In this document: positions 21,533 to 36,031 of the stretch, one piece after another
Layout: each line of letters starts with the position of its first letter
Position numbering within the stretch: position 1 is the stretch's first letter
Virus record (IMG/VR): IMGVR_UViG_3300032240_002285
Location: 35,746-99,745 of that record
Reading direction: 5' to 3' (one strand)
From: a virus
Length of the DNA stretch: 64,000 nt
Notes under the pieces: generated by a model
The model's input: only the letters and a program-made list of their open reading frames with translations
What the model was told of the DNA's origin: nothing
Databases searched by the model: none
Translations under genes and position numbers: made by a program

Positions 21533-22294
21533 ATGAAAACTATCCAAGAAGCAATCCAAGAGATTAAAGATTTTGATTTTAAAAATGCGACCCAACAAGA
21601 AATTGAGGCAGTCCTACCAACATTTGGTATGAATGATGAACAAACATTTGAAATGCCGCAAGAATTGAGTGAATATTTTGGATGGGGGGTTAAATTTTGG
21701 CAATACCCAAATCAACTTAGTAAACTTATTTGTTATCTTAGAGAAAAACAAATTGATTCTTATTTAGAAATTGGTTGTAGATGGGGTGGAACTTTTATAA
21801 TTTTAAATGAAGTTCTACGAAAATATAACCCACATCTTGATGCATATGCTTTAGACCATATACCAGCTTCCGATATCCTTCATAGTTATCAACATGATTT
21901 CAAAGGAAATCCATTTGCATATATTCAAATGGATTCTAATGGTTCATATTTTTTTTATCACATGGGAGGATTCCTCACGGTTCCTACGGTACAAATGGAT
22001 TGCGTACTCATTGATGGAAATCATACATATTGGGGTATTAAAGAAGATTATCATAGAGCACTTACAATGGGCGCAAAATATATAATTTTTCACGATATTG
22101 TTAATCAATCGTGTAATCCATGTAGAAAAGCTTGGAAAAATATTAAAAAAAATCATAAGAATATTGTTGAATTCAACGACCAATATGATTCAGTTACTGG
22201 AACTTATTTAGGTATCGCAGTTGTTGAAGTAAATAAAGAAGATAAATGTTTTCCACACTTTCAAGAATATTATCCAGATTTGTTTGGCGAATAG
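21533..22294 (+). CDS. Class I SAM-dependent methyltransferase (Methyltransf_24-like)
   Basis: YLEIGCRWGGT, LIDGNHTY, IIFHDI. Confidence 0.85.
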   Translation: MKTIQEAIQEIKDFDFKNATQQEIEAVLPTFGMNDEQTFEMPQELSEYFGWGVKFWQYPNQLSKLICYLREKQIDSYLEIGCRWGGTFIILNEVLRKYNPHLDAYALDHIPASDILHSYQHDFKGNPFAYIQMDSNGSYFFYHMGGFLTVPTVQMDCVLIDGNHTYWGIKEDYHRALTMGAKYIIFHDIVNQSCNPCRKAWKNIKKNHKNIVEFNDQYDSVTGTYLGIAVVEVNKEDKCFPHFQEYYPDLFGE

Positions 22295-22337
22295 AGTATT
22301 TATTCTTACATTTGTGTTCACAAGTTCTTTAAAATAT

Positions 22338-28396: not shown

Positions 28397-28473
28397 TGGG
28401 GTGAAAAATGGGGGTCGAACCCATAACCTTCCGAATCACAATCGGACGCTCTGCCTGTTGAGCTATAGACACC
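28397..28473 (-). tRNA. tRNA-His(GUG) with mismatched acceptor stem
   Basis: G-1/C73, TCCGA-TTGTGAT-TCGGA, encoded CCA; acceptor pairs 4-6 mismatched. Confidence 0.8.
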
Positions 28474-28478
28474 ATATG

Positions 28479-28637
28479 CTGTAGTGGAAGGAATCGAACC
28501 TCCAAGGGGTAATTAGGTAAAGGACAATAGTGCTTGCAAGCTGGTGGTCTACCCCGATATCCTTACTTTATTTCATAATCCCCGCCCCCGAGACAGGAGG
28601 GTGCGTCTGCCAAGCGTACGCATTTCGCCACACTACA
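28479..28637 (-). ncRNA. Giant tRNA-like RNA (159 nt; GUC at the anticodon position; ~81 nt variable arm)
   Basis: Acceptor TGTAGTG/CACTACA, T-arm GGAGGTTCGATTCCTTC, Leu-type D-arm with insert. Confidence 0.75.
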
Positions 28638-28732
28638 ATTTTCAAACTAACTCACTGGAAACCTTATAACTTATTTTCAAAGCTTATGGGTTAAGCACTC
28701 CTATTATGTTAGTTTCTCGTGCTCTAAGTGTG

Positions 28733-28984: not shown

Positions 28985-29068
28985 TGGTCAGGACAGGATT
29001 CGAACCTGTATGAGTTTCTCACCTCTACCCCTGGACGGGGCTGCGTCTCTCCATTTCGCCACCTGACT
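28985..29068 (-). ncRNA. tRNA-like RNA with non-canonical 5-nt anticodon loop
   Basis: Acceptor AGTCAGG/CCTGACC, T-arm ACAGGTTCGAATCCTGT, arm GCCCC-GTCCA-GGGGT. Confidence 0.7.
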
Positions 29069-33022: not shown

Positions 33023-33057
33023 AAAAAACCCGAACTAATTTTTATTTTAGTTCGGGT
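33023..33057 (-). terminator. Attenuator-type terminator of leader 2
   Basis: ACCCGAACUAA...UUAGUUCGGG-U6. Confidence 0.85.
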
Positions 33058-33080
33058 CTATATTATTAAGTTAGTTTTTT

Positions 33081-33185
33081 CTATCCAACAATCACATCCG
33101 AACTTTTTATATACGTAAGCGTATAGGCAGTCCCATTATTATAAGGTCTGTCTAATCTCGGCAATATGTTAATAAAGTTCGTCAT
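33081..33185 (-). CDS. Leader peptide 2 (34 aa) MTNFINILPRLDRPYNNGTAYTLTYIKSSDVIVG
   Basis: Open frame ATG 33185 to TAG 33081; contains antiterminator AGUUCGG (33098-33104). Confidence 0.72.
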   Translation of the reverse strand: MTNFINILPRLDRPYNNGTAYTLTYIKSSDVIVG

Positions 33186-33471
33186 TGTGTTTATAAGTAT
33201 ATGTAAAGTTGGAAAAAAATCCACAATAAATAAAATTTATTTATTGATTACTTTACAAAGATAAGAATTGTGATAGATATTTATTGATAGAACAAACAGA
33301 TATGTGTCTTTTGGAAAATACATTTAACTATGAGAACTTGGATGAATTGAGAAAGGAAAAGCTCAAAACCATAAACCGCATTTAAACATTGTTTTATATA
33401 GAAGGGGGTGTAGTTTCACCCCCTTTTTTGTTTTTTAAATTAATTAAACTATATTTGTAAAAAAGATTATA

Positions 33472-34363: not shown

Positions 34364-36031
34364 ATGAGGACATTAGGATTTTCTGTTGGCCACGATAAGG
34401 GCGCGGTAATTATTGAGGATGGTAAAGTGGTGGTGGGTATCACGCAAGAAAGATTAAGCAGAATAAAACATGATGGAGCTTATAGTGGAGGTAAAATACC
34501 TTTTGAATCTATAAACTATTGTTTAAATGCTTTAGGATTAACCTTAGAAGATATTGATTCATATGTCTATAGCACAACAGAAATAGTTGATAATGTTGAA
34601 AAACAATTCAAAGAATATACTAACAAACATATTAACTTAAAATTCATTCCTCACCATTTAGCACACGCATATTCATCATTTTTCAGTTCTGGACTTGATG
34701 AAGCAGCAGTAATTGTTGCTGATGCGTCGGGAAGTATTTTATCTCACTTAAATAAATTACCAATTTGGTATCCAAATGTTACAAAAGAAGGTTTAGACCC
34801 TGAAGAGGATTGGACGGAAGCAATTTCAATTTATCATTTTACAAGAGATAAATTTAATGAAGTTTATAAAAAATGGATAAAATATCCAATACCACTAGAA
34901 ACTGATGATGATGTATCTTTAGGTACATTATATTCTGAAGGTTCACTACAATTAGTTTATGAACCAACAAATCATACATGGACTGCAGGTAAACTTATGG
35001 GATTAGCATCTTATGGCGACCCTGTAATTGTTGAAGAGGCTCCTGAATTTATTAAGGAAATTGATGGGGATATTTTTATTCCAAATCGTAGAATTTATCC
35101 AAAAGTTGATTATACATCCGATTTCTTTTCAAAGGCATGTGTGGCAGGAATTTATCAACGAGAACAGGAAAGGGCTTCATTAATTTTGGCTAAAATAGCT
35201 AAAAATTTATCAAAATCTAAAAATGTTTGTGTTGCTGGTGGGTCATTTTTAAATTGCAACTCCAACGAACAAATATTGAAATCGGAATTATTTGATAATT
35301 GTTATTTCTTACCTCCATCAGACGATAGTGGAATCCCGTTAGGTTGTGCTTGGTATGCTTACCAAGAATTATTAGATATTACATCAGATGATATGTTATC
35401 ACCTTACTTAGGTAAAACATACTCAAGAAATGAAATTGTGGAAGCAATAAATAAATTCCCTAATTTAATTTTTAATGAAATAAATGATGAGGTAGAACTT
35501 TACGACTCAGTTTCATATTGGTTATCCCAAAATAGAGTTATAGGATGGTTTCAAGGAGGGTCAGAGATTGGCCCAAGAGCTTTAGGTAATCGTTCAATTT
35601 TGGCATCTCCTATTAAATCATGGATAACTCCTCACATCAACTCAGATATTAAAAAAAGAGAATGGTATAGGCCTTTTGCTCCAGCAGTTTTATTTGAACA
35701 TCAAAATGAAATTTTTGAATCTGATTTATATTCTCCTTATATGTTAGTAACGACAACAGTTAAAGAAAAATGGAGAAATAAAATTCCTGCAGTTACCCAC
35801 ATTGACAATTCGGCCAGACATCAATCTGTAACAGAAACAAGTAATAATAGATTTTATAATTTAATTACTAAATTTTATGAAAAAACAGGAGTTCCTGTTC
35901 TATTGAATACAAGTTTCAATGGACCTAAAGAACCTATAGTAGAATCTCCTACCGACGCAATTAATACTTTTATTGAGACAGGTTTGGACTTTTTAGTTTT
36001 AAATAACTTTGTAATATCTAAAAAATTATAA
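34364..36031 (+). CDS. O-carbamoyltransferase (NodU/CmcH/TobZ family) 1
   Basis: GHD, ERLSRIKH, HHLAHA, GKLMGLA, GPRALGNRSILA, RPFAP, LNTSFN. Confidence 0.93.
   Translation: MRTLGFSVGHDKGAVIIEDGKVVVGITQERLSRIKHDGAYSGGKIPFESINYCLNALGLTLEDIDSYVYSTTEIVDNVEKQFKEYTNKHINLKFIPHHLAHAYSSFFSSGLDEAAVIVADASGSILSHLNKLPIWYPNVTKEGLDPEEDWTEAISIYHFTRDKFNEVYKKWIKYPIPLETDDDVSLGTLYSEGSLQLVYEPTNHTWTAGKLMGLASYGDPVIVEEAPEFIKEIDGDIFIPNRRIYPKVDYTSDFFSKACVAGIYQREQERASLILAKIAKNLSKSKNVCVAGGSFLNCNSNEQILKSELFDNCYFLPPSDDSGIPLGCAWYAYQELLDITSDDMLSPYLGKTYSRNEIVEAINKFPNLIFNEINDEVELYDSVSYWLSQNRVIGWFQGGSEIGPRALGNRSILASPIKSWITPHINSDIKKREWYRPFAPAVLFEHQNEIFESDLYSPYMLVTTTVKEKWRNKIPAVTHIDNSARHQSVTETSNNRFYNLITKFYEKTGVPVLLNTSFNGPKEPIVESPTDAINTFIETGLDFLVLNNFVISKKL

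Follow-up and report, generated by a model that had tools for sequence, protein, structure and literature searches.

A possible translation-coupled attenuator ahead of a tRNA array in a large uncultured phage

The 64,000-nucleotide stretch analysed here (the window) covers positions 35,746 to 99,745 of the IMG/VR virus record IMGVR_UViG_3300032240_002285, a 99.7-kb record that CheckV rates as 26% complete and that thus comes from a large phage. The GC content is about 31%, and the window carries 17 tRNA genes and a tmRNA. Most of the tRNA genes lie on the minus strand between 27472 and 32779, and a 260-nt gap inside the array at 28472-28732, between tRNA-His and tRNA-Ser, holds no tRNA called by ARAGORN or Rfam. 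The element of interest lies in the 690-nt gap between tRNA-Arg (32779) and a divergent HNH endonuclease gene (33472). On the plus strand of this gap, at 33400-33457, a terminator hairpin is followed at once by a full host-type promoter motif (33427-33457) in front of the endonuclease gene. No plus-strand gene is evident upstream of this hairpin, and it may stop transcription antisense to the leader described below.

On the minus strand of the gap an open reading frame of 34 codons, here called leader 2, runs from the ATG at 33185 to the TAG at 33083-33081. It is followed by an intrinsic terminator, a 13-pair hairpin of -17.4 kcal/mol with its 5' arm at 33059-33047, an 8-nt loop at 33046-33039 and its 3' arm at 33038-33026, where the last three pairs of the 3' arm are the first Ts of the T6 run at 33028-33023. 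The first genes behind this cassette are tRNA-Arg(UCU), tRNA-Pro(UGG) and tRNA-Asn(GUU), at 32779-32545. Candidate promoters of the leader transcript, inferred from motifs only and without transcript data, are a host-type -7 box of the TAnnTTTG form at 33263-33256 and a TATTTAT box at 33232-33226, whereas the -7 box that relatives carry about 25 nt before the ATG is degenerate here. About 10-25 nt upstream of the ATG (33195-33215) there is also an AACTTT...ATATAC signature that is shared with divergent cassettes on the related contigs L033, L038, L120, L122 and L132, and which could be a phage-specific promoter or a translation-start context.

Codons 28-30 of the leader are AGT TCG GAT, so that AGUUCGG occupies 33104-33098. 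The same heptamer is found at 33036-33030 in the 3' arm of the terminator, and its complement CCGAACU at 33055-33049 in the 5' arm. A sequence-only reading had placed the heptamer at 33104-33098 and proposed that it is one strand of a terminator/antiterminator switch, and every coordinate it gave is right. Taken alone, however, the match is not significant. A Watson-Crick run of 7 or more between the 140 nt upstream and the extended 5' arm arises in 7-9% of mononucleotide shuffles (p 0.07-0.09), which preserve only base composition, and the duplex-energy p is 0.04-0.075. The helix is only 7 bp and far weaker than the terminator (about -11 against -17 kcal/mol). Chance similarity in AT-rich DNA next to an ordinary terminator could therefore not be dismissed from this window by itself, although the comparative data below make it very unlikely. 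Predicted folds do support the geometry. A transcript cut before the 3' arm pairs 33104-33098 with 33055-33049 in both the minimum-energy and the centroid structure (z -2.4), and the complete transcript forms the terminator together with a helix between 33181-33174 (codons 2-4) and 33106-33099 (duplex -8.0 kcal/mol, p 0.065). In the predicted structures, the four regions are thus laid out as in a classical attenuator.

In an effort to find relatives, we started from a neighbouring carbamoyltransferase, which led to a related contig (L004) with a similar ORF, terminator and tRNA array. A conserved box after the terminator, used as a search pattern that says nothing about the ORF, brought in five related cassettes, and a pattern requiring the motif gave more, but that search is biased. 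We therefore ran a pattern that asked only for the start of the ORF and a T-run 118-148 nt later, and it recovered every member of the group of leader 2 as well as several groups with unrelated terminators. The tRNA regions of five near-complete phages of 263-476 kb were finally scanned for terminator, short ORF and tRNA with no sequence motif at all. In total we collected 43 distinct cassettes from IMG/VR contigs, with ORFs of 17-37 codons, heading tRNA arrays in uncultured large phages, and the 42 that have a detected tRNA array fall into 19 peptide clusters. Some related phages (L004, L026, L041, L107, L115, L130 and L038) carry a second leader type, with an N-terminus MRT or MKQ and 25-34 codons, before Val-Glu-Phe or Ile-Phe-Lys-Trp arrays, and these peptides are again rich in the matching amino acids.

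The complement between leader and terminator is specific. The duplex between the ORF and its own 5' arm beats shuffles at p of 0.1 or less in 40 of 43 cassettes. When leaders and arms were exchanged among 22 representatives, own pairs gave -14.1 kcal/mol and foreign pairs -8.6, and none of 20,000 permutations reached the observed sum. As a further control, 25 ordinary gene-end terminators after long ORFs in the same phages gave -6.2 kcal/mol (Mann-Whitney p against the leaders 3.7e-10). Cassettes unrelated to leader 2 have quite different stems, and yet the 3' part of the ORF again complements its own 5' arm. Some complements are long, with 10 to 12 pairs (L134:972-1136, L146:12637-12810, L142:16052-16188 and L139:1825-1945). 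The sequences are related by descent, and the counts overstate the number of independent events.

Covariation was found among the alignable relatives of leader 2, 18 distinct sequences with homologous ORFs of 27-36 codons, all of which were recovered by the search that required neither the motif nor the stem. Since MAFFT placed the 5' arms of the two subgroups one column apart, pairs were counted with a script anchored on the helix cores. The four core pairs (GUUC with GAAC) are invariant apart from one G.U. The next pair toward the stop codon is G:C in 8 sequences and A:U in 10, never a mismatch, and the two pairs on the other side, which involve the first loop bases that the terminator itself leaves unpaired, are A:U or U:A (15 of 18) and A:U or G:C (10 of 18). 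In all, 86% of cells are paired, against 7-46% when the partner is slid by one to three columns. The third base of codon 4 also changes together with the base three positions before the core, as read by eye from the alignment, which supports the helix of codons 2-4 with the heptamer region in this subgroup (leaders starting MKNLNT, e.g. L004, L025 and L026). That helix is not general in the family and is not significant in most other clusters.

An alternative would be that the ORF encodes a functional micropeptide, with the heptamer conserved as the codons of a Ser-Ser-Asp or Cys-Ser-Asp motif and its likeness to the terminator arm incidental. The ATG and the N-terminus (MKNLN or MTNLN type) and a central Arg-Pro..Asn-Gly stretch are indeed conserved among relatives, and synonymous variation occurs elsewhere in the ORF. 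The GUUC core is however kept in three different reading frames, with peptide C-termini that differ by frameshift while the nucleotides stay, and where the partner base is C the Ser codon is always the rare TCG, which makes up 5.3% of Ser codons in these phages. Peptide composition moreover changes wholesale with the tRNA set downstream, and we regard the micropeptide explanation as very unlikely.

The codons of the leaders follow the tRNAs behind them. The cassette at L138:1637-1770 is rich in Lys and Phe and precedes Lys-Lys-Phe-Lys-Phe-Lys, L141:2587-2702 has five Gln codons in a row before two tRNA-Gln genes, L137:12597-12735 alternates Leu, Gln and Arg before Arg-Leu-Leu-Gln-Leu, and L134:972-1136 holds Trp, Pro, Tyr and Cys before Tyr-Pro-Pro-Trp-Cys. 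With strict wobble rules, 28 of 42 leaders exceed background at p below 0.05, a swap test over the 19 clusters gave 0 of 100,000 permutations, and an amino-acid-level swap over six groups gave 1 of 720. Leader 2 is a modest member in this respect, with 10 of 33 codons cognate against a background of 0.19 (p 0.088). Its main cluster of presumed sensing codons, codons 9-17 at 33161-33135, includes Pro, two Arg AGA, Leu, Pro, Tyr and two Asn, read by tRNA-Arg(UCU), Pro(UGG), Asn(GUU), Tyr(GUA) and Leu downstream. In comparison with the close relative L031 (L031:200-700), the window lacks about 205 nt behind the leader, including tRNA-Leu(UAA), while the TTA and TTG codons remain in the leader. 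The remaining roughly 165 nt before tRNA-Arg (within 32950-32780) are about 98% identical between the two phages and match no Rfam family, and could be a small structured RNA or a processing spacer.

In 15 cassettes the first tRNA begins 9-23 nt after the start of the T-run, which leaves no room for a promoter, and those tRNAs can only be made by read-through. The terminator must then be conditional, which makes the attenuation model hard to avoid for the family. The alternative pairing could conceivably serve another purpose, such as setting the stability or processing of the leader transcript, or coupling translation termination to RNA 3'-end formation without regulating the tRNAs, and nothing here shows which outcome the conserved complement controls. 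The match of codons to tRNAs would however have no reason to exist under this reading, nor would the cassettes in which the tRNA starts right after the T-run, and we find it improbable.

In this window the tRNAs do not need read-through. A host-type promoter, TTTG, 19 nt and TAnnTTTG, which appears to correspond to the Bacteroidota consensus, lies at 33025-32995, and its upstream element is the end of the T-run of the terminator. It is a consensus match, but the motif is enriched in the window, with 11 hits against 3.0 expected, and it also precedes tRNA-Thr, several protein genes and the tmRNA (22283-22314 on the plus strand). A boxA-like dodecamer follows at 32951-32940 and is conserved at the head of tRNA arrays in related phages, with a one-mismatch copy at 29103-29092 and a related stretch that ends right at the 5' end of the tmRNA. 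It appears to resemble the rrn-type boxA of processive antitermination, and it is a separate element from the switch.

The window has a second cassette, leader 1 (29264-29075, minus strand), with an ORF at 29264-29160, a terminator at 29136-29108, the boxA-like copy, a promoter motif at 29105-29075 and then tRNA-Gly at 29068. Its codon match is strong (15 of 33 cognate, p 0.0009), but it has no convincing antiterminator. The sequence-only reading had offered only a weaker candidate here, GUCUCG at 29190-29185 with UGGGAC, and this remark holds (UGGGAC is at 29129-29124), but the best duplex is no better than shuffles (p 0.33-0.37). The counterpart of leader 1 in L038 does have an antiterminator (p 0.02). 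At the homologous position L031 (5560-5880) has the end of a protein gene, a terminator, the boxA-like element, the -7 box and tRNA-Gly, but no leader ORF, so the cassettes are dispensable and are gained or lost as modules.

These features leave room for the possibility that leader 2 is a relic, or a mere insulator that shields the internal promoter from upstream transcription, with the heptamer inherited from real attenuators without current function. The promoter and boxA-like element behind both terminators, the state of leader 1, its absence from L031, the lost tRNA-Leu(UAA) and the degenerate -7 box all speak for it. On the other hand, all 18 relatives that carry the internal promoter keep the ORF, the terminator and the complement, with compensatory changes and a rare codon, which indicates continuing selection alongside the promoter. 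We therefore read the arrangement as a basal promoter plus conditional read-through, and consider the relic explanation unlikely.

The best explanation is that leader 2 is a ribosome-mediated transcription attenuator of the trp/ilv kind, and the interpretation given by the sequence-only reading is supported. We hypothesize that RNA polymerase starts upstream of the ORF with a ribosome following it. If the ribosome runs to the TAG, it sits between the heptamer and the 5' arm, the two cannot pair, and the terminator forms. The stop codon lies 3-14 nt behind the core in the relatives and 14 nt behind the heptamer here, so a terminating ribosome would cover at most its last few bases, and we infer that it blocks pairing mainly by occupying the 42-nt loop and the inner helix predicted there. 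If the ribosome instead stalls at codons 9-17, it also keeps codons 2-4 (33181-33174) away from the heptamer, which is then free to pair with the 5' arm as soon as this emerges, so that terminator formation is delayed and polymerase reads on through the boxA-like element into the tRNA genes. With no ribosome at all, codons 2-4 would pair with the heptamer region, acting as an anti-antiterminator, and termination would follow. Translation of the leader, the ribosome positions and the effect on termination are inferences from sequence, but we think it probable that leader 2 is a working switch, and for the family as a whole our confidence is higher.

The leader-peptide attenuators of amino-acid biosynthesis operons (trpL, hisL, leuL, pheL and the multivalent thr and ilvGMEDA leaders of enterobacteria) likewise have a short ORF enriched in the codons that report on the regulated product, an intrinsic terminator, and an antiterminator strand near the end of the ORF that competes for the 5' arm, and the ilv and thr leaders sense several amino acids at once. 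Here, however, the regulated genes are phage tRNA genes rather than biosynthetic enzymes, each tRNA sub-array has its own tailored leader, the leaders sample up to about ten amino acids rather than runs of one, and in this clade a constitutive promoter and the boxA-like element sit between attenuator and genes. T-box riboswitches couple tRNA status to read-through of an intrinsic terminator by way of an antiterminator, but they bind uncharged tRNA directly through a specifier codon and the T-box sequence, need no translation, and control aminoacyl-tRNA synthetase and amino-acid genes, whereas here there is an ORF and no T-box motif. Rfam searches at gathering and permissive thresholds (E up to 1) gave only tRNAs and tmRNA plus weak chance hits. 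The leader region matched no deposited phage genome, and a 6-kb query matched only tRNA genes. We found no published account of leader peptides or attenuators in front of tRNA genes in literature that excluded most subscription journals. The nearest case is the stress-induced trn operon (L-array) of Anabaena sp. PCC 7120 (PMC8421152, PMC10272220), an extra tRNA array whose expression rises when translation is impaired, but it is cellular and regulated by direct repeats over the promoter and a repressor, and the words attenuator, leader and terminator do not occur in the 2021 paper.

Why phages carry tRNA genes, and how they are expressed, has been debated for decades, and recent work ties them to escape from tRNA-cleaving defences (PMC10264068, PMC11555353). 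It is somewhat more likely than not that large phages gate each block of their tRNA genes with a multivalent attenuator written in the codons that the block decodes, and thereby sense depletion of exactly those tRNAs, for example after host shut-off or attack by anticodon nucleases, and answer by transcribing replacements. In this clade, conditional read-through layered on a constitutive host-type promoter plus a boxA-like element would give two-tier expression. The covarying antiterminator turns a codon coincidence into a mechanistic, testable model, and the element also offers a compact natural sensor of codon-specific translation speed for synthetic biology. A translation-coupled switch in front of the arrays would mean that the phage measures the decoding of particular codons and supplies the matching tRNAs on demand, which would extend attenuation from amino-acid supply to the tRNA pool itself.
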